From Gammaproteobacteria bacterium (GTDB lineage: Bacteria > Pseudomonadota > Gammaproteobacteria > Steroidobacterales > PWYM01): 64,000 nt of DNA. This document shows positions 1 to 8,170 of this stretch, piece by piece. The DNA lies in the NCBI GenBank assembly GCA_007693855.1, contig RECU01000045.1:14536-78535 (forward strand), given 5' to 3'. The position numbers and the translations under genes were made by a program. Within the stretch, counting starts at the first letter, position 1. Every line of letters begins with the position of its first letter. Below the pieces are notes generated by a model. That model was not told the origin of the DNA and ran no database searches. It was given only the letters and a program-made list of their open reading frames with translations.

Positions 1-489
1 CTCTATAACGTGCCGGGGCGCACGGCCGTGGACATGCAGCCGGAGACGGTCGCCCGGCTTGCCGAGCATCCCTGCATCACCTCGCTGAAGGAGGCCTCAG
101 GCGAGGTCGCCCGGGTGGCGCGGCTGCGGGAACTCTGCGGCGAGGACTTCGGTCTGTACAGCGGTGACGATGCCACCACTCGTGAATTTATCCTGGCCGG
201 GGGTAATGGCGTCGTCTCGGTCACTGCAAACGTCGCCCCGGCCCTGATGCAGCGTATGTGCGCCGCGGCCCTGGCAGGCGAGGCCGAGAACGCTGCCGCG
301 CTGGACAAGCCCCTTGCCGGACTGCACGAGAAGCTGTTCGTCGAGGCCAACCCGATCCCCGTCAAGTGGGCGCTCGAGCGGATGGGGCTCATTGATGAAG
401 GGATCCGTCTGCCGCTGACGCGGCTCTCGCAGGCGGCCCAGCCCATCGTGGAACAGGCGCTCAGAGACGCCGGAGTGACATTGCCATGA
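1..489 (+). CDS. dapA: 4-hydroxy-tetrahydrodipicolinate synthase, C-terminal part (5' end outside window)
   Basis: The frame is open from base 1. It translates to [12 protein letters not shown]...SGDDATT...VSVTANVAP...NPIPVKWAL, a typical DapA C-terminal half. The stop overlaps the next start (ATGA at 486-489). Confidence 0.9.
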
Positions 490-767
490 TTCGTTTGAAA
501 AGCCTGATGGCGCGCGCTGGCGCGGTGGTCGTCGCCGCCAGCACCCTGGCGGCCTGCGCCGGCGTGCCCTGCGAGCGCCCCGAGCGCTATGCCGGTGCGC
601 CCAGCGGGGCGCCTCTGCAGATTCCCGAGGGCTTTACGCCGCCGGATCAGTCTCGCGCGCTGCGCATCCCGCCGCAGCCGGTGGAGGAGCCGCGTCGGGT
701 CAGCCGCCGCGGGCCGTGCCTGGAAAGCCCTCCGGATTTCTTCGATCAGCCGTTGATCGAGCGCTGA
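486..767 (+). CDS. Small lipoprotein, BamC(NlpB)-like N-terminal region only
   Basis: ATG overlaps the dapA stop. The signal peptide ends in the lipobox LAAC. The P-rich segment [16 protein letters not shown] resembles the unstructured N-terminus of BamC, and the gene sits in the dapA-bamC synteny position. It is only 93 aa. Confidence 0.55.
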
Positions 768-847
768 GCCCCGCGCAGTGTCTGCGCCACGCCTGTTGGC
801 GTGGAATTGCCACCTCAGCACCGGCGGGGTAAGCTTCGCGGCTTCCA

Positions 848-938
848 GGAGAGGTGGCCGAGTGGTCGAAGGCGCTTGATTGGAATTCAAGTATACGGTA
901 ACCCCGTATCGTGGGTTCGAATCCCACCCTCTCCGCCA
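848..938 (+). tRNA. tRNA-Ser (anticodon GGA), encoded CCA end
   Basis: Acceptor stem GGAGAGG/CCTCTCC. Anticodon stem CTTGA/TCAAG with loop TTGGAAT. Long variable arm. T-arm GGTTCGAATCC. Ends in GCCA. Confidence 0.93.
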
Positions 939-946
939 GTTCGTGC

Positions 947-966
947 AAGGGCCCTTCGGGGCCCTT
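947..966 (+). terminator. Stem-loop after tRNA-Ser (AAGGGCCC-TTCG-GGGCCCTT)
   Basis: Perfect 8-bp GC stem with a UUCG tetraloop directly after the tRNA. The downstream T tract is only short (TTAT). Confidence 0.35.
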
Positions 967-977
967 ATGCTTGCAGC

Positions 978-1967
978 ATGTCCTCAGCACCGACACTCGC
1001 CCAGATCGAGGCCGCCGCGCGGCTGGTGCATGCGCACATGCCGCCCACACCCCAGTACTGCTGGCCCCTGCTCAGTGAGGCCCTGGGGACCGAAGTCTGG
1101 GTCAAACACGAGAACCAGACGCCTGTCGGGGCGTTCAAGATTCGCGGGGGGCTGGTGCATTTTTCGCAGCTGGCGGCACGCGGTGCCCTGCCGACGGGCG
1201 TGATCAGTGCAACCCGCGGCAACCACGGTCAGTCCGTGGGCTTCGCCGCCCGCCTGCACGGCGTGCCGGCCACCATCGTCGTGCCCCACGGCAACAGCCG
1301 CGAGAAGAATGCGGCCATGCGTGCGCTGGGTGTCGAGCTGATCGAGCACGGCGAGGATTTCCAGGCTTCCCGCGAGCACGCCGCCGCCCTGGCCGAGGCG
1401 CGCGGGTTGACGATGGTGGCCTCGTTTCACGATGACCTGGTGACCGGTGTGGCCACTTACGCGCTGGAACTGCTGCGCGCCGTGGCGGACGTCGACGTGG
1501 TGTACGTGCCCATCGGCCTGGGCTCCGGCATCTGCGGCATGCTGGCGGTGCGCGATGCGCTGGGCCTGGCCACCGAGGTGGTTGGTGTGGTCTCGGCGCA
1601 TGCCCCGGCCTATGCGCGGTCGTTCGCGACGGGTGTGCCGGTCGACGCGCCGGCGCTGACCGCGATTGCCGACGGCATGGCCTGCCGCTCGGCAGAGCCT
1701 GCCGCGCTGGAGCGCATCTGCCGCGGTGTCGCCCGGGTCGTGGAAGTGACGGATGCCGAGGTGCGCGAGGCCATGCGCCTGGTGTTCGAGACCACGCACA
1801 ACGTCGCCGAAGGCGCGGGCGCTGCCGCGGTGGCGGCGGCCCGGCAGGAGCGCGCCCGCAATCGCGGCAGGCGCGTCGCGGTGGTGCTCTCCGGGGGCAA
1901 TGTCGATCGCGAGGTGTTCGCCCGGGTACTGGGCGAGGAGTCTGAGTCTCAAATGCCGGATTCATGA
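978..1967 (+). CDS. PLP-dependent threonine/serine dehydratase family enzyme
   Basis: Contains the GAFKIRGG PLP-lysine motif, SATRGNHGQS and a glycine-rich loop. The track ORF 801-1967 runs through the tRNA, so the start is trimmed to the ATG at 978. Confidence 0.8.
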   Translation: MSSAPTLAQIEAAARLVHAHMPPTPQYCWPLLSEALGTEVWVKHENQTPVGAFKIRGGLVHFSQLAARGALPTGVISATRGNHGQSVGFAARLHGVPATIVVPHGNSREKNAAMRALGVELIEHGEDFQASREHAAALAEARGLTMVASFHDDLVTGVATYALELLRAVADVDVVYVPIGLGSGICGMLAVRDALGLATEVVGVVSAHAPAYARSFATGVPVDAPALTAIADGMACRSAEPAALERICRGVARVVEVTDAEVREAMRLVFETTHNVAEGAGAAAVAAARQERARNRGRRVAVVLSGGNVDREVFARVLGEESESQMPDS

Positions 1968-3361
1968 CGGTCGAACAGGCGTTCATCGCCCTCGCGCTGG
2001 CCGGCCTGCTGCTGATCTGCGGTGTCTTCATCCGGCGGCACGTGACGCTGCTGCAGCGGCTGTACCTGCCGAGCTCGATCGTCGCTGGCACGCTGGCGCT
2101 GCTCGCCGGCCCCGAAGTGCTGGGGCGCTTCATGTCGCAGGCCGCCCCGGAGAGCGGACTCGTCGACGGCCTGTTCCCCGACTACGTCACCGAGGTCTGG
2201 CGGGCGCTGCCCTCTCTATTGATCACCATCGTGTTCGCCTGCCTGTTCGTCGGCAAGCGTATTCCGCCGCTTGCCGTCATCTGGCAGCGTGCCGGTCCGA
2301 TGATCGCTCACGGTCAGGCGCTCGCCTGGGGGCAGTATGTGGTCGGCATCACCCTGGTGATGGTGCTGCTGCGGCCGGTGTTCGGGATGCCGGCGATGAC
2401 CGGTGCGCTCATCGAGATCGGTTTCGAGGGTGGTCATGGCACGGCGGCCGGCCTTGCGGAAACCTTCCGGGAACTCGGCTTCGCCAACGGCGCGGATCTC
2501 GCCATAGGGCTGGCCACCGTCGGTGTGGTCTCCGGCGTCCTGCTGGGCACCTTGCTGGTGAATTGGGGGGTGCGCAGCGGGCGCATCGATCCGGAGGCGG
2601 CAGGCTGTGATCCCGAAGCCGCCGGCGAAGCGGATCCGGATGCCTCCCAGGGCGATGGCGTGCGCCCTGGCGCCGCGGAGCCCCTGGCCATCCACTTCGG
2701 CTACCTCGCGCTGGCGATCGCGGCGGGCTGGCTGATCCTGCAGGGGCTGGTGTGGGTGGAGTCGGTGACCTGGGGTCGTGGCGAAGAGGGGCTAGAGCTG
2801 CTGGTTCACGTGCCGCTGTTTCCGCTGGCGATGATTGGCGGGGTGCTGTTTCAGCTGGCCATGATGCGCGCGGGACGGGCGGAGGCCATCGACCGTGATC
2901 TCATCAACCGCATCTCGGCCGCATCGCTGGATGTTCTGATCGTCGCCGCGCTCGCCACCCTGTCGCTGGAGGCGCTCGGGACGTATTTCTGGCCGCTGGT
3001 GATTCTTGCCATGGCCGGCATCGCCTGGAACCTGGTGGGGTTCCTGGTGCTTGCGCCGCGGATGATTCCCGATCACTGGTTCGAGAAGGGGCTCGCAAAC
3101 TTCGGCCAGGGCATCGGCATGACCGTCATCGGCCTGTTGCTCGTGCGCATGAGCGATCCACAGAACCGCTCCGGGGCCATGGAAGGTTTCGGCTACAAGC
3201 AACTGCTGTTCGAACCCGTGGTGGGCGGCGGGCTGTTCACGGCAGCGTCGCTGCCGCTGCTGTACGCGTTCGGTGCGCTGCCGGTGCTCGCCGGCACGGC
3301 CAGCCTGATGCTGGGATGGCTGCTGTTCGGCTGGTGGGCGTTCGGCCGGCAGCGGGCTTGA
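1964..3361 (+). CDS. Sodium/glutamate symporter (GltS/ESS family)-like membrane transporter
   Basis: 465 aa and polytopic. The N-terminus LLLICGVFIRR..LQRLYLPSSIVAG is typical of GltS. ATGA overlap with the upstream dehydratase gene. Confidence 0.65.
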   Translation: MTVEQAFIALALAGLLLICGVFIRRHVTLLQRLYLPSSIVAGTLALLAGPEVLGRFMSQAAPESGLVDGLFPDYVTEVWRALPSLLITIVFACLFVGKRIPPLAVIWQRAGPMIAHGQALAWGQYVVGITLVMVLLRPVFGMPAMTGALIEIGFEGGHGTAAGLAETFRELGFANGADLAIGLATVGVVSGVLLGTLLVNWGVRSGRIDPEAAGCDPEAAGEADPDASQGDGVRPGAAEPLAIHFGYLALAIAAGWLILQGLVWVESVTWGRGEEGLELLVHVPLFPLAMIGGVLFQLAMMRAGRAEAIDRDLINRISAASLDVLIVAALATLSLEALGTYFWPLVILAMAGIAWNLVGFLVLAPRMIPDHWFEKGLANFGQGIGMTVIGLLLVRMSDPQNRSGAMEGFGYKQLLFEPVVGGGLFTAASLPLLYAFGALPVLAGTASLMLGWLLFGWWAFGRQRA

Positions 3362-4533: not shown

Positions 4534-4686
4534 TCAGCGCCACTTGATCGAACAGCCCATGCTCGGCGTTTTTTCACGCGGCCCGTGGCAGTCAGCGAGC
4601 GTGTACCGGCGTTCATCGACACCGCGCAGCGTGAACTCGACCGCCGGGGTAGCGAATTCGCAGGCCGGGGTGTCTTTCAGGGCCAT
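4534..4686 (-). pseudogene. N-terminal remnant of a thioredoxin-fold (AhpC/TSA-like) protein, 50 codons
   Basis: GAGGT Shine-Dalgarno precedes the ATG at 4686. MALKDTPACEFATPAVEFTLRGVDERRYTLADCHGPR matches the N-terminus of roughly 190-aa thioredoxin-family proteins. It ends before the expected CxxC region, and the stop lies 10 nt before the next gene's start. Confidence 0.4.
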
Positions 4687-4701: not shown

Positions 4702-5388
4702 TCAGTCGCGGGCCATCTGTCGCCGCGCGGCTTCTATCAGGCCGCGGAACAGGCGGCGCTGCCGCGACATGAAAATCAAAAATTCCGGATGCCATTGTAC
4801 GCCGACCAGGAAGGCATGCTCCGGGTCCTCGATCGCCTGGATGATGCCATCGAGATCGCGCCCGACGATGCGCAGACCGATGCCGGTGCGGTCGATCGCC
4901 TGGTTGTGCAGGCTGTTGATGCGACAGCGCTGGCAGCCCATCAGTTCCTCCAGACGCGAGTCCGCGACCAGCTGCAGGGTCTTCAAGGGCAGTACGGTCC
5001 AGCGGTTGGAGGTGTGCTGGCGACGGGAGCGCAGTTCCTGGAACAGGTTCCCGCCGCGGCGCACGTTCAAGAGCTGGGCGCCGCGGCAGATGCCGAGCAG
5101 GGGCAGGCCACGGGTCAGGGCGTCGTCGATGACGCGGGATTCGAAGGCATCGCGTTCCGGGTCGTGGCGCGGTTCGACTTCGGGCTCGGAGGCGTAAAGC
5201 ACCGGATCGATGTCATGGCCGCCGGTCACGACCACGCCGTCATAGTGCTCGGGGGCCAGCGGATCTCCGGGGCGCAACTGCAGCGGCCGGCCCCCGTAGG
5301 CGCGCACTGCCAGCGCCACCAGCAGGCGCGGCCCGCGCGCGCGTCGCTGTGGTCCGGTGATGGCGATCACGGGGGTGGAGCGCGCCAT
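4702..5388 (-). CDS. Class I glutamine amidotransferase-like / peptidase C26 (gamma-glutamyl hydrolase, PuuD-like) family protein
   Basis: GICRGAQLLN nucleophile elbow and the VQWHPE histidine motif. Start MARSTPVIAITG lies 5 nt after the upstream stop. Confidence 0.8.
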   Translation of the reverse strand: MARSTPVIAITGPQRRARGPRLLVALAVRAYGGRPLQLRPGDPLAPEHYDGVVVTGGHDIDPVLYASEPEVEPRHDPERDAFESRVIDDALTRGLPLLGICRGAQLLNVRRGGNLFQELRSRRQHTSNRWTVLPLKTLQLVADSRLEELMGCQRCRINSLHNQAIDRTGIGLRIVGRDLDGIIQAIEDPEHAFLVGVQWHPEFLIFMSRQRRLFRGLIEAARRQMARD

Positions 5389-5393
5389 CGGGG

Positions 5394-6434
5394 CTAGACC
5401 TTGCTGCCGGACAGCCAGTGGGCCTCGACCTGATTCTCCCAATGGCCGAGCCAGCGCTTGAGCGGCTGGCTCAGAAACGCGAGGTAGGCCTCGCAGCAGC
5501 CGGCCAGGCGCTCGGGATCGTCGGCCAGCGCCTCGACTTCCAGCCAGTCGTTCCACGCCAGGTGAAACCCCCACTCCGGCAGATGGATCTCGCAGTCCGG
5601 CAACCGGTAGTGCAGGGCCGGGCGGGGCTTGATCAGCGGGTCATGGGTGACCGCGCGGACCCGCGCCTCGTCGAGGTGCAGAAACAGCGGCAGGAGATCC
5701 AGCGCACGGTTGCGGGTCGGGTTGTCCTCAAGATAGTCGTCGATCAGTTCGGCGAGCCCGGGCCGATAGTCCGTGGCGATCACCTTGCGCACATAGGCGA
5801 TCGGGAACGGATCGATGTAGGTGGTCAGGCGACGGGTGAGGTTGATGTCGGCGCGCACGTAGAGCCAAGGGTACAGACACAGGAAGGCCTGGAGATAGGC
5901 ACGCAGGGTGTCGGCCTCGACGTCCGGTACCTCCGGGTTGAACTGCATGCTGAAGGCATAACTCAGCCCATCGGACGTGCCGCGCGCGCCGGCCTGCCGA
6001 AGCTTGTCGATCAGCCCCTCGACCTCGTGCAGCCGGCTCATCGGCAGCGGCGGGCTGACCACCTCCAGCGGCACCACCGGGTCGGCGAGTCGCTTCAGAA
6101 TATCCTCTGCCGAATTGCGCAACTCATCGAGCAGGACCTCGGCATCGCGCTTCTCCCGGCCCAGCCGCTGCAGCAGGCTGAAGTCGAGTTCGACGGCCCA
6201 GTCACCGGCATCGTCGCCGGCCAGCAGCCGCTCATAACGCCCGTCCTCACTGATCTCGAGTCCGAGGTGTTCGGCGACGATCGCGCTGATCTCCTCCAGC
6301 GACAGGCCGATCATTTCCAGCTCGACACCGACGCGTCGTTCGGCGCCCTCGGCGGTCTGCAGACGTCTCGGCAGTCCCGGCGTGCTGGCGGCGCGCGCCT
6401 CATCGACGGCCGCCCGGGGTGTCTTGTCGTTCAT
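5394..6434 (-). CDS. Amidoligase_2 family (GS/GCS-like fold) putative amidoligase
   Basis: 346 aa. N-terminal RRVGVELEMIG motif and overall layout typical of the putative-amidoligase family. The start overlaps the ggt stop (ATGA at 6431-6434). Confidence 0.65.
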   Translation of the reverse strand: MNDKTPRAAVDEARAASTPGLPRRLQTAEGAERRVGVELEMIGLSLEEISAIVAEHLGLEISEDGRYERLLAGDDAGDWAVELDFSLLQRLGREKRDAEVLLDELRNSAEDILKRLADPVVPLEVVSPPLPMSRLHEVEGLIDKLRQAGARGTSDGLSYAFSMQFNPEVPDVEADTLRAYLQAFLCLYPWLYVRADINLTRRLTTYIDPFPIAYVRKVIATDYRPGLAELIDDYLEDNPTRNRALDLLPLFLHLDEARVRAVTHDPLIKPRPALHYRLPDCEIHLPEWGFHLAWNDWLEVEALADDPERLAGCCEAYLAFLSQPLKRWLGHWENQVEAHWLSGSKV

Positions 6435-8170
6435 GGGGTCATCATAATGCCATCGCCCAGCGCTCGCGCCGCACCGTCATGGCGCGGATCGGCCGCGCCG
6501 CGCCAGCCGTCGGGCGCCCGCTCGATACCGTGCAGCCCGGAGGGCATGCGGGCTCGGCGCAGCGTGTGTCCATAGCCGCGCAGCCGGTCGGCTTCGGTGT
6601 CGGCCGGGCTGCCGCGCTCGAGCTCGAGATGCTCGCCGCGGTGCAGGAAGTTGCCTTCCGCGAAGGCCTCTTCGAGCGACAGCTCCCAGTCGAGCACGGC
6701 GATCAGTACCCGCACGAGGTGGCCGATGATACGGCTGCCGCCGCGCGCGCCGAAGGCCAGCACCGGTGTGTCGTCGGCGGCGAATACGATGATCGGCGAC
6801 ATGGAGCTCCGCGGCCGCTTGCCGGGGGCTGGCAGATTGACCGGCGCGTGGTCCGCAAGCGCCGGGTCCTCGGGTGCGATGAAATCGAAGTCGGTGAGCT
6901 GGTTGTTCAGCAGAAAGCCCGCCGCGCGCCGCCGGCTGCCGAACGGCGCTTCGATCGAGCTGGTGACGGCGGCGATATTGCCCGCCGCGTCGATGATGGT
7001 GAAGTGCGAAGTCCCGCCTGAGTCAATGTCGTGGCCGTGCGCCACGGCCGGACGGGCCCGCGTCCGCTCGATCAGGGCCGCCCGCTGGGCGAGGTAGTCG
7101 GGCGCGAGCAGGTGTGCCACCGGTACTTCGACAAACTCAGGGTCACCGACCCAGGCGGCGCGGTCGGCAAAGGCCAGGCGGCTGGCCTCGGCGATCAGGT
7201 GGATGGCCTCGGCGCGCTGGTCGGCCAGCTCAGCCATCGGGAAGTGCTCCAGCATGCCGAGCACCTGGAGCACGGCCAACCCGCCAGAGGAGGGCGGCGG
7301 GGCGCCACAGACCCGCCATTCGCGGTACTGTCCACAGAGTGCCTCGCGGGTCTCGACCCGGTAGCCGGCGAGGTCCTCGGGGGTCAGCCTCCCGGTGCGC
7401 CAGGCGCCCGCCGTGGCGCGGGCGGCGATCGTCCCGGCGATCTCACCCTGATAGAAGGCCGCCGGTCCGTGTTCGGCCAGGGTTCTGAGCGTGGCCGTGG
7501 CCTGCGGGTCCTGCAGCGTGTTCGCCGGCCGCCACGGCCATCGGAAGAAGTGCGCCCGGAGGTCCGGGAAAAACCACAGGCTTGGGTCGGCGCGCAGTTG
7601 CCGGCGCAGCCGGGGTGCGGGGGGATACCCCTGTTCGGCCAGGGTGATCGCTGGGGCCAGCAGTTCCGGCCAGGGCAGTCTGCCGTGTGCGCCATGAGCC
7701 TCACCCAGCATCGCCACCAGGCCCGGCACCCCCACGGCGCGCCCGCTGATCACGGCCAGTGCGTGGGGCAGGGGGCGGCCGCCGAACCAGGTGAACGCCT
7801 CGACGCTCGCGCCTGCCGGGGCGGTCTCGCGGCCGTCGAAGACCTCGAGCTGGCCGCTGGCGGCGTGATAGTGCAGCAGGAAACCGCCACCGCCCGGCCC
7901 GGTCTCCGGAGCCTCGACCAGTCCGAGCACGAACTGCACGGCCACCGCGGCATCGACCGCGGAGCCGCCGGCGGCCAGCACGTCGAGGCCGGCGCGGACC
8001 GCGTCGGGATGCGCGGCGGCAACCACGCCCTCGCGGCCTGACACTGGCCAGGGAGCTTCCTCAGGGGCCTCCACGGGCCCACTGCAGGCGGCGAGACCCA
8101 GCGTGACCAGCAGCGTGACCCACCGGCAGGTGGCCGCGCGTGCGCGCGGCCTGTGATGCACCCCCCTCAT
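6431..8170 (-). CDS. ggt: Gamma-glutamyltransferase with lipoprotein-type signal peptide
   Basis: GGTSHFTIID autoprocessing/catalytic Thr motif and the PGKRPRSSMSP motif. N-terminus MRGVHH...LVTLGLAACSG gives a lipobox. Start taken at the ATG at 8170. Confidence 0.9.
   Translation of the reverse strand: MRGVHHRPRARAATCRWVTLLVTLGLAACSGPVEAPEEAPWPVSGREGVVAAAHPDAVRAGLDVLAAGGSAVDAAVAVQFVLGLVEAPETGPGGGGFLLHYHAASGQLEVFDGRETAPAGASVEAFTWFGGRPLPHALAVISGRAVGVPGLVAMLGEAHGAHGRLPWPELLAPAITLAEQGYPPAPRLRRQLRADPSLWFFPDLRAHFFRWPWRPANTLQDPQATATLRTLAEHGPAAFYQGEIAGTIAARATAGAWRTGRLTPEDLAGYRVETREALCGQYREWRVCGAPPPSSGGLAVLQVLGMLEHFPMAELADQRAEAIHLIAEASRLAFADRAAWVGDPEFVEVPVAHLLAPDYLAQRAALIERTRARPAVAHGHDIDSGGTSHFTIIDAAGNIAAVTSSIEAPFGSRRRAAGFLLNNQLTDFDFIAPEDPALADHAPVNLPAPGKRPRSSMSPIIVFAADDTPVLAFGARGGSRIIGHLVRVLIAVLDWELSLEEAFAEGNFLHRGEHLELERGSPADTEADRLRGYGHTLRRARMPSGLHGIERAPDGWRGAADPRHDGAARALGDGIMMTP

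Follow-up and report, generated by a model that had tools for sequence, protein, structure and literature searches.

A predicted amidoligase/C26 hydrolase operon with a dedicated exported gamma-glutamyltransferase in a soda-lake bacterium

Introduction

Comparative genomics led in 2008 to the prediction of a 'second family' of carboxylate-amine ligases, now PF12224 (Amidoligase_2), for which a role in making glutathione-like peptides or secondary metabolites was proposed (Iyer, Burroughs and Aravind; PMC2588565). The pairing of such an amidoligase with a peptidase C26 enzyme was already described in that work. A comparable ligase-plus-hydrolase arrangement is found in the Puu pathway of E. coli and the Pau-Spu pathway of P. 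aeruginosa, where an ATP-dependent ligase with glutamine synthetase (GS) fold (PuuA/PauA, GS family PF00120) acts together with a deglutamylating C26 hydrolase (PuuD/SpuA) and, in the Puu pathway, with oxidoreductases of the PuuB/PuuC type. The Meister gamma-glutamyl cycle consists of glutamate-cysteine ligase (GCL), gamma-glutamyltransferase (GGT) and gamma-glutamyl cyclotransferase. Moreover, phage modules of the phiEco32/LUZ24 type combine an amidoligase with a class-I glutamine amidotransferase (GATase)/C26 protein and sometimes with AIG2 enzymes.

Here, a three-gene operon in a window of 64,000 nucleotides (the whole stretch of DNA that was analysed) from a soda-lake bacterium is compared with these systems. 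It shares with the family of 2008 both the ligase and the proteobacterial neighbour, a GATase-like thiol peptidase, which bears out the pairing that, according to the first-pass annotation, had been noted in comparative genomics. In the 2008 paper, to which this comparison is confined and which is distinct from its follow-up of 2009 (Mol Biosyst 5:1636), no gamma-glutamyltransferase is described ('transpeptidase' occurs 0 times), and Aig2 neighbours are those of firmicutes, whereas here they occur at 21 proteobacterial and Desulfobacterota loci. In contrast to the Puu and Pau-Spu pathways, the ligase belongs to PF12224, and GGT or the AIG2-type gamma-glutamyl cyclotransferase GGACT is linked instead of PuuB/PuuC-type oxidoreductases. 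As in the Meister cycle, a ligase of GS/GCL fold is combined with a GGT outside the cytoplasm and with an enzyme inside it that releases the gamma-glutamyl partner, but here the genes form a single operon, GshA is encoded separately and is not the ligase of the operon, release would be hydrolytic (C26) and not by cyclisation, GGT and GGACT alternate and do not co-occur, and no 5-oxoprolinase is linked. Unlike the phage modules, the locus is chromosomal and has no ATP-grasp or Ntn-GATase partners, and its amidoligase matches no PHROG at E<=1e-3. The pair itself having been described, the third gene, a dedicated GGT beside it, appears to be the new part. The locus narrows the chemistry of a ligase family that has been predicted since 2008 and flags a distinct GGT clade.

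Materials and methods

Gene neighbourhoods were surveyed at the 80 closest amidoligase loci with 6-kb flanks and, additionally, at 21 loci forming an even phylum sample. For the fold comparison of the amidoligase an AlphaFold model (pLDDT 86.5) was used. A first GGT tree with very long paralogue branches was unresolved, and resolution was obtained once closer unlinked GGTs had been added. For the glutathione-amide synthetase test, the amidoligase was expected in every lineage for which production of glutathione amide has been inferred (Chromatiaceae and Ectothiorhodospiraceae; PMC8877833).

Organization of the operon

The operon comprises three tightly packed genes, all on the minus strand (positions 4702-8170). 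The first codes for a predicted exported lipoprotein GGT of the operon-type subfamily (6431-8170, 579 aa), the second for a predicted cytoplasmic PF12224 carboxylate-amine ligase (5394-6434, 346 aa) and the third for a predicted cytoplasmic PuuD/SpuA-like hydrolase with peptidase C26/class-I GATase fold (4702-5388, 228 aa). The GGT stop codon TGA (6433-6431) and the amidoligase start codon ATG (6434-6432) overlap in an ATGA on the minus strand (6431-6434), and a minus-strand spacer of 5 nt (5389-5393) separates the amidoligase stop codon TAG (5396-5394) from the C26 start codon ATG at 5388; the coupled arrangement that had been noted in the first-pass annotation was thus confirmed by reading the sequence. 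According to ORF coordinates, the 4-nt overlap of GGT and amidoligase is also present at loci L012, L058 and L080, and it recurs in four lineages. An identical gene order was found in all four amidoligase-bearing congeners and in several other lineages, so the three-gene arrangement is more than chance. Among the cultured carriers are Halopseudomonas (for example H. salina), Natronospirillum operosum, Salinivibrio and Allochromatium. In a metatranscriptome, short contigs match all three genes, which weighs little in favour of the function proposed below; with respect to co-transcription, the contigs of the RNA library cover parts of each gene and none bridges a junction.

The amidoligase

Profile searches placed all three proteins above cut-off in the families first proposed for them (PF01019/TIGR00066, PF12224 and PF07722). 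The 346-aa protein, for which an HMM check against Amidoligase_2 had been suggested, passed it with 209.7 bits (cut-off 22) and covers profile positions 2-244 of 245. Alignment identified G-V-E-L-E (residues 36-40; 6315-6329, minus strand) as the GhExE Mg/ATP-site signature of the GS/GCS2/PafA superfamily, which was defined in PMC2588565 on core strand 1; the signature falls within a strand predicted for residues 34-42, and G36, E38 and E40 are invariant in 16 homologues. The top 18 structural matches of the model are all GS, GCL, YbdK, PafA or Dop proteins (Z 7.2-11.7, 209-246 residues aligned), including the gamma-glutamyl-amine synthetases NpaA1 (8wwu, Z 10.4), GmaS (9qur, Z 10.0) and 4hpp (Z 10.7), and the best Foldseek match is the plant GCL 2gwc (probability 0.98). 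The model thus indicates a fold of the GS/GCL type. Since GS-fold relatives such as Dop work as hydrolases, the label 'ligase' stays a predicted one. A sequence search for a solved structure of the PF12224 family gave none, and no fused long amidoligase form above 606 aa was found, an observation of little weight.

Two specific functions were considered and rejected. The enzyme is not the sole gamma-glutamylcysteine ligase of the cell, as gshA and gshB are present in the genome. A glutathione-amide synthetase was rejected because the amidoligase is too patchy across both families, being present in 13/61 Chromatiaceae-type and 7/18 Ectothiorhodospiraceae-type genomes.

The C26 hydrolase and the conserved pair

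The C26 protein reached 161 bits against PF07722 (cut-off 20.5) and 85.7 bits against the NCBIfam PuuD equivalog NF008471, for which the cut-off of 266 was not reached; by these scores it is PuuD-like, yet no PuuD orthologue. The nucleophile motif G-I-C-R-G with Cys101 (5080-5094, minus strand) aligns to AICRG, and the W-H-P-E motif with the catalytic His-x-Glu (4783-4794, minus strand) to WHPE, of PuuD (6vtv) and Lin1909 (3fij), so that a Cys-His-Glu triad is predicted from alignment. The nearest solved structures are Lin1909, PuuD and a probable GATase of P. aeruginosa (7d4r), and the nearest solved relatives (PuuD, SpuA-like, Lin1909) are free hydrolases and not synthase-bound GATase subunits.

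In the survey, C26 lies directly downstream of the amidoligase on the same strand at 64 of the 80 closest loci, where the genes overlap or are at most 33 nt apart, and it has this position at 17/21 loci of the even phylum sample as well. The amidoligase-C26 pair is therefore the conserved core of the locus. Apart from C26, just two neighbours recur: GGT, at 23/80 loci (~29%), and GGACT, at 21/80 loci (15 of 15 scanned proteins match PF06094); the two were never found together at one locus (0/80). At three Geobacterales-type loci (L070, L081 and L085) that have no C26, GGACT overlaps the amidoligase stop codon in the usual C26 position, and a non-homologous enzyme with an analogous job has displaced C26 there. 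Loci lacking C26 had antiporter, porin, ion channel, alpha/beta hydrolase, HTH-cupin and AMP-binding enzyme neighbours with no consistent pattern.

A close pair of a GS-fold enzyme and a class-I GATase-fold protein might also be read as a glutamine-dependent amidotransferase, with C26 as glutaminase subunit feeding ammonia to the amidoligase (X-COOH + Gln + ATP -> X-CONH2 + Glu), as GatA does for GatB or a GATase for its synthetase, and with GGT and GGACT unrelated or loosely related to it. The fold and triad of C26 agree with this reading, as does the coupling or overlap of the genes at most loci, which would be expected of complex subunits; the GS-fold superfamily moreover includes ammonia users such as GS and GatB/GatE (PMC2588565). 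However, models of GATase subunits score far below the best matches of C26, which are free gamma-glutamyl hydrolases, and at least 6-7 amidoligase loci have GGACT and no C26, with GGACT in the C26 position at the three loci above. A cyclotransferase is unable to supply ammonia, and these loci therefore count against an amidotransferase, which also leaves the dedicated GGT clade (see below) without a role and whose concrete version, the glutathione-amide synthetase, failed the phyletic test. We regard it as distinctly unlikely.

As C26, GGT and GGACT, three unrelated families, all cleave gamma-glutamyl bonds, the set is rather taken to handle a gamma-glutamyl-type amide. A rival reading is a transient gamma-glutamyl 'handle' as in Puu-, Ipu-, aniline-, Egt- or Btr-like pathways, in which the amidoligase would gamma-glutamylate an amine and enzymes encoded elsewhere would oxidise or modify it before C26, GGACT or GGT deglutamylated the modified product, the substrates of ligase and hydrolase being different. 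Such a scheme would follow the logic of PuuA/PuuD, fits the PuuD/SpuA-like character of C26 and the structural neighbours NpaA1 and GmaS, which are synthetases of such pathways, and would do away with the futile cycle discussed below. Further in its favour, the gamma-glutamyl protecting group of butirosin synthesis is taken off by BtrG, an enzyme of AIG2/GGACT fold that is paired with a ligase. The genes of known handle pathways, though, are mostly clustered, and at the 80 + 21 loci no modifying enzyme, whether an oxidoreductase, an aminotransferase or another, is a repeated neighbour of the pair; within the 6-kb flanks of the 80 loci this includes Puu-type oxidases or dehydrogenases for a gamma-glutamylated intermediate. 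The handle pathway, which we consider unlikely, overlaps with direct synthesis and cleavage of a gamma-glutamyl amide, the explanation preferred here, and differs from it solely in the existence of the intermediate step.

The dedicated gamma-glutamyltransferase

The GGT scored 462 bits against PF01019 and, with 363.2 bits, above the equivalog cut-off of TIGR00066 (357.85). Its N-terminus has a charged n-region followed by a hydrophobic core and a lipobox L-A-A-C (residues 26-29; 8084-8095, minus strand), of which Cys29 (codon 8084-8086) is predicted to be lipidated; an equivalent lipobox is present in ~20/22 linked GGT N-termini. No signal peptide was found in the amidoligase or in C26, in agreement with the earlier view of an exported lipobox protein and two cytoplasmic enzymes. 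Alignment to E. coli GGT and to 4y23 identified the autoprocessing and nucleophile motif G-G-T-S-H-F (7001-7018, minus strand), with Thr387 corresponding to E. coli Thr391. The gamma-glutamyl-binding residues R114, Q430, D433, S462, S463, G483 and G484 (E. coli numbering) are retained, and T409S and N411E are substitutions relative to the E. coli enzyme. By score, nucleophile Thr and binding residues the protein is thus assigned to the GGTs (TIGR00066/PF01019, MEROPS T03). Its nearest solved structures are the Bacillus GGT 4y23 and the E. coli GGT 2e0w. The E. coli-type lid loop, with Tyr444 over the pocket, is missing in this protein and in 22/22 linked GGTs, which places it outside the lid-loop class.

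In the resolved tree, the 22 upstream-linked GGTs, including that of the window, form one clade (SH-aLRT 97), and all 12 unlinked GGTs tested fall outside. Genomes having the pair and no linked GGT contain GGTs of only 36-41% identity, or none. Within the genus, presence of the linked GGT tracks the amidoligase: amidoligase-positive genomes have it at 56-74% identity, and the two amidoligase-negative congeners have only paralogues (45% and 38%). Belonging to one clade and sharing the presence-absence pattern of the amidoligase, this exported subfamily, seen only beside the amidoligase, is a dedicated partner of the pair, though in just one clade of the amidoligase family. The survey of orthologous neighbourhoods for ggt, which had been recommended as a check, hence indicates an adjacency that is not fortuitous. 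GGT was found in 0 of the 20 other loci of the even phylum sample; it is therefore not essential to the core chemistry, and it is an accessory gene whose place GGACT can take.

That most amidoligase loci have no GGT, that its compartment differs from that of the pair and that its gamma-glutamyl pocket is canonical would also suit an ordinary GGT that scavenges glutathione or gamma-glutamyl peptides in the periplasm and is co-transcribed with the pair by accident, and glutathione would be available, as the genome has gshA and gshB. Against such independence stand the single clade found only beside the amidoligase in the tested genomes, the ATGA overlap in four lineages and the mutual exclusion of GGT and GGACT in the slot; in addition, the genome encodes three further paralogues as well as an E. 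coli-like GGT (contig C104) with a lid loop carrying Phe in place of Tyr444. An independent GGT is accordingly judged very improbable. The physiological substrate of the operon-type clade is probably other than glutathione.

Proposed function

The explanation that we somewhat favour is a single transcription unit around the two-gene core, in which the amidoligase would make a gamma-glutamyl amide and C26 and the recruited GGT would cleave it. Most likely, the gamma-carboxylate of glutamate, or that of a gamma-glutamyl donor, would be activated by the cytoplasmic amidoligase at the expense of ATP and coupled to a small amine or an amino acid, yielding the gamma-glutamyl amide. The coupled C26, as a stand-alone Cys-His-Glu hydrolase of the PuuD/SpuA type, may then free glutamate and the amine inside the cell. 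In the clade including this genome, the pair would have recruited its own GGT subtype, an exported lipoprotein whose gamma-glutamyl pocket is complete and which lacks the lid loop; on the outside of the inner membrane it could hydrolyse or transfer the same kind of bond, a role that a cytoplasmic cyclotransferase of the AIG2/GGACT type would take in other lineages. We infer that the bond formed is gamma-glutamyl-N and that all enzymes of the operon share one compound; the evidence points to some gamma-glutamyl compound as the product. In the literature no biochemical study was found for any PF12224 member, ATP-dependent amide-bond formation included, so that glutamate is guessed to be the acyl donor on the grounds of fold and gene neighbours.

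If ligase and hydrolase act on one compound and no enzyme modifies it in between, they would run a futile cycle unless regulated or compartmentalised, and in the surveyed neighbourhoods no conserved oxidase, transporter or regulator was found. With GGT outside the cytoplasm and the ligase inside, a substrate common to both would have to be transported, and the locus encodes no transporter. In the first-pass annotation the operon had been regarded as a make/break/transfer triad for a gamma-glutamyl-type amide. The theme holds, since all partners cleave such bonds, but 'triad' is overstated for a set whose GGT is accessory and replaceable by GGACT. The divergent class II aldolase and GntP permease, suggested there as possible suppliers or importers of the acceptor, were rejected as functional partners, the aldolase adjoining only within the genus and GntP at 0/80 loci.

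As a long shot, the operon may serve as a gamma-glutamyl shuttle that spans the inner membrane, is self-contained and works independently of glutathione: the amidoligase would make a hitherto undescribed gamma-glutamyl metabolite in the cytoplasm, which would be exported, the dedicated open-pocket lipoprotein GGT would transfer or remove the glutamyl group outside, and C26 would recover imported gamma-glutamyl products inside the cell. If so, it would be a counterpart of the Meister cycle in bacteria, or a turnover system for a secreted gamma-glutamyl compound, and would have spread through gene transfer between bacteria from saline and alkaline environments.

Genomic context

A fourth operon gene 3' of C26 was rejected, the 50-aa ORF at 4534-4686 being a deletion remnant. 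Searches for a riboswitch or leader RNA, a sigma-70 promoter and an intrinsic terminator at the operon gave nothing above chance. A phage or defence-system origin was likewise rejected (PADLOC 0; amidoligase without PHROG match): the operon has a GC content like that of the host, and its flanks are host-like and carry housekeeping genes. The C26 protein matches the phage GATase phrog_7218 with 72.5 bits.

Locus samples and phylogenetic analysis

The surroundings of the amidoligase gene were compared in 80 species-representative loci chosen for the highest similarity to it (52-84% identity, 10-kb flanks), which were scored by tblastn and by unbiased ORF clustering. A second, independent sample of 401 genomes was evenly drawn from the phylum; PF12224 (Amidoligase_2) was present in 22 of these genomes, and 21 other loci were scored. 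The loci covered were therefore the 80 closest and these 21, out of about 600 or more PF12224 loci in the species collection. The tree of gamma-glutamyltransferases (GGTs) was rooted with E. coli and included, besides the linked GGTs, 12 unlinked ones drawn from the same genomes.

Organization of the operon

Re-reading of the sequence returned three minus-strand open reading frames exactly where the first-pass annotation had placed them, encoding the GGT (window 6431-8170), the amidoligase (5394-6434) and the peptidase C26/class-I GATase-fold protein, here C26 (4702-5388). The translational coupling and close spacing that had been described were both borne out: the ATGA at 6434-6431 contains both the stop of GGT and the start of the amidoligase, and 5 nt (5389-5393) separate the amidoligase stop from the ATG of C26. 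The GC content of the operon is that of its flanks, its neighbours are housekeeping genes, and no promoter, terminator or Rfam element stood out at the operon. Short contigs of a pond metatranscriptome, which may include DNA carry-over, matched each of the three genes in part, two GGT pieces being 100% identical; none of the matching contigs bridged a gene junction.

Beginning 16 nt past the end of C26, a 50-aa ORF (window 4534-4686, minus strand) is what an in-frame deletion has left of a thioredoxin-fold gene. The window copy retains only ~36 N-terminal and ~14 C-terminal residues and has no Pfam match; the deleted form was supported by DNA contigs of two runs. In a congener (L007:3796-4347) the thioredoxin-fold gene is intact, encodes 183 aa with a CNHCP motif, and lies between C26 and the fatty-acid hydroxylase. 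On the plus strand, window 1-3361 holds a co-directional cluster of a DHDPS-family enzyme truncated by the window start, a PLP-dependent PALP enzyme (801-1967) and, overlapping the latter by 4 nt, a weak homologue of GltS-like sodium/glutamate symporters (1964-3361); beyond the genus, this cluster is not conserved beside the amidoligase.

Properties of the encoded proteins

The family assignments of all three proteins were upheld by profile searches. The 579-aa GGT matched PF01019 (462 bits) and TIGR00066 (363 bits against a cut-off of 358). At its N-terminus, a charged n-region is followed by a hydrophobic stretch and by the lipobox LAAC with Cys29. Both the nucleophile Thr and the residues of the gamma-glutamyl pocket (R114, Q430, D433, S462, S463, G483 and G484, E. 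coli numbering) are retained. Position 411 is Glu and the lid loop bearing Tyr444 is missing, as in the open pocket of the Bacillus type. Five GGT-family genes were found in the 3.3-Mb genome, namely that of the operon (window 6431-8170) and one each on contigs C104, C74, C87 and C78. The C104 protein is E. coli-like and lid-bearing, and the C87 protein belongs to the type that is sister to the operon GGT. The pocket residues of the C74 and C78 proteins are diverged.

No export signal was found in the amidoligase or in C26. The amidoligase (346 aa; PF12224, 210 bits) has no solved structure that could be related to it by sequence, and the top 18 structural matches of its AlphaFold model (pLDDT 86.5) were glutamine synthetases, glutamate-cysteine ligases, YbdK, PafA and Dop (Z 7.2-11.7), including the gamma-glutamyl-amine synthetases NpaA1 and GmaS. 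Its residues G36-V-E-L-E40, invariant among homologues, correspond to GhExE, the signature by which the superfamily's metal/ATP site is defined (PMC2588565). C26 (228 aa; PF07722, 161 bits) contains the Cys and His-Pro-Glu motifs, and its nearest structures are the free hydrolases Lin1909, PuuD and a P. aeruginosa SpuA-type protein. Since it scores far short of the cut-off of the PuuD equivalog model, it is classified from sequence as PuuD-like and not as a PuuD orthologue.

Conservation of the neighbourhood

Among the 80 closest loci, C26 lies immediately downstream of the amidoligase on the same strand in 64, with an overlap or a gap of at most 33 nt. The survey of orthologues for ggt linkage proposed in the first-pass annotation showed that GGT recurs in 23 of the 80 loci (22 upstream on the same strand, 21 of them within ~110 nt, and one downstream of C26); in the even phylum sample neither GGT nor the AIG2-type gamma-glutamyl cyclotransferase (GGACT, PF06094) occurred within 1.5 kb of the amidoligase in any of the 21 other loci, of which 17 had C26 next to it. 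C26 is therefore the core partner of the amidoligase, and GGT is an elaboration limited to the clade around the window genome. GGACT adjoins the amidoligase in 21 of the 80 loci (PF06094 matched in 15 of 15 scanned) and never occurs together with GGT; in three Geobacterales-type loci it overlaps the amidoligase stop, in the usual place of C26. Only about three intact loci lack all three partners. The possibility that amidoligase and C26 form a glutamine-dependent amidotransferase complex is weakened by this replacement of C26 by GGACT in some loci, and by the closest relationship of C26 being to free hydrolases.

The divergent class II aldolase and GntP permease, suggested as further partners in the first-pass annotation, did not hold up across the 80 loci, where the aldolase recurs within the genus only and GntP is adjacent in none. 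Beyond lineage-specific synteny, of which a BCCT transporter in Halopseudomonas, Porticoccus and Thiomicrospira is an example, no further recurrent neighbour was found in these loci. In Thioalkalivibrio-related loci (L015-L017, L019, L020) the module is directly preceded, with or without GGT in between, by the gene of an AAA+ ATPase whose C-terminus bears an FHA domain. Among the other families of the order, a single amidoligase was found (L011, G035:C13:1-10000; 38% identity). It has no C26, GGT or GGACT alongside; upstream of it lies a divergent VTT/DedA-type membrane protein, and downstream a GGDEF protein.

The closest relatives are genomes from soda lakes and other saline habitats. Since the orthologue group in the 80 loci reaches Desulfobacterota and one cyanobacterium, horizontal spread is suggested.

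Evolution of the linked GGT

All 22 upstream-linked GGTs fall into a single clade (SH-aLRT 97), whose sister is the C87-type paralogue of the genome, and about 20 of the 22 carry a lipobox. The sole outlier, Azoarcus taiwanensis, has its GGT downstream of C26 and is placed in the C87-type sister clade. Genomes with the amidoligase-C26 pair and no linked GGT have GGTs of only 36-41% identity, or none. The amidoligase occurs in four of the six other species of the genus, all four with the order GGT-amidoligase-C26 and with 56-74% identity of the linked GGT. The two congeners that lack the amidoligase (genome completeness 98% and 93%) offer nothing closer than paralogues of 45% and 38%. A GGT functionally independent of the pair is contradicted by the linked-GGT clade and by this co-occurrence.

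On the amidoligase tree the GGT state changes at least nine times, four of these changes being forced by well-supported branches. One syntenic slot is found in two states, AAA-FHA/GGT/amidoligase/C26 and AAA-FHA/amidoligase/C26, and in Halopseudomonas, where the synteny is otherwise identical, the position upstream of the amidoligase is occupied by GGT or by the divergent gene of a TetR-family regulator (L068, L072, L077, L083, L087, L091 versus L026, L033, L049, L054). These patterns are most simply explained by a single recruitment of an exported GGT, followed by spread of the three-gene unit and repeated loss or replacement of GGT.

Functional interpretation and comparison with previous work

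The amidoligase most likely forms a gamma-glutamyl amide bond, because every recurrent partner cleaves gamma-glutamyl bonds and non-homologous partners interchange; this we infer, since no biochemical assay of any PF12224 member was found in the literature. C26 would hydrolyse the amide in the cytoplasm, GGACT would cyclise the gamma-glutamyl group off it, and the lipoprotein GGT would act outside the membrane on the amide or on an exported or imported form. The main weaknesses of the gamma-glutamyl-amide model are an apparent futile cycle and the lack of both a transporter and a modifying enzyme in the linkage. A rival is a "transient glutamyl handle" pathway resembling Puu, Egt or Btr, with its middle steps encoded elsewhere.

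Ordinary gshA and gshB are present in the window genome. The pair was also considered as a candidate for the so far missing enzyme that makes glutathione amide in purple sulfur bacteria, a glutathione-amide synthetase. Glutathione amide has been inferred for all Chromatiaceae and Ectothiorhodospiraceae (PMC8877833), whereas the amidoligase is patchy (13 of 61 and 7 of 18 genomes, respectively), and this candidate was therefore rejected.

The amidoligase-C26 core is already known. In 2008 Iyer, Burroughs and Aravind reported both the pairing of the amidoligase with a GATase and the alternative with Aig2, and predicted synthesis of glutathione-like peptides; GGT is not mentioned in their paper (PMC2588565). 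No description was found of an exported GGT clade dedicated to the pair, of its inheritance together with the pair or of its mutual exclusivity with GGACT in proteobacteria, the 2009 follow-up lying outside this comparison. The locus is a variant of an uncharacterised module, of moderate interest and with a clear experimental path; the first-pass observation is confirmed, and its interpretation stands in part, without the aldolase and GntP partners and with GGT limited to one clade.

A BCCT (betaine/choline/carnitine-type) transporter, absent from the window, lies near the amidoligase in differing arrangements in three lineages, Halopseudomonas/Pseudomonadaceae (L023-L091), Porticoccus (L045, L050, L061) and Thiomicrospira sp. 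ALE5 (L069), the last with a co-directional run BCCT-porin-GGACT-amidoligase-ion channel. This adjacency possibly hints at osmolyte or amine traffic.
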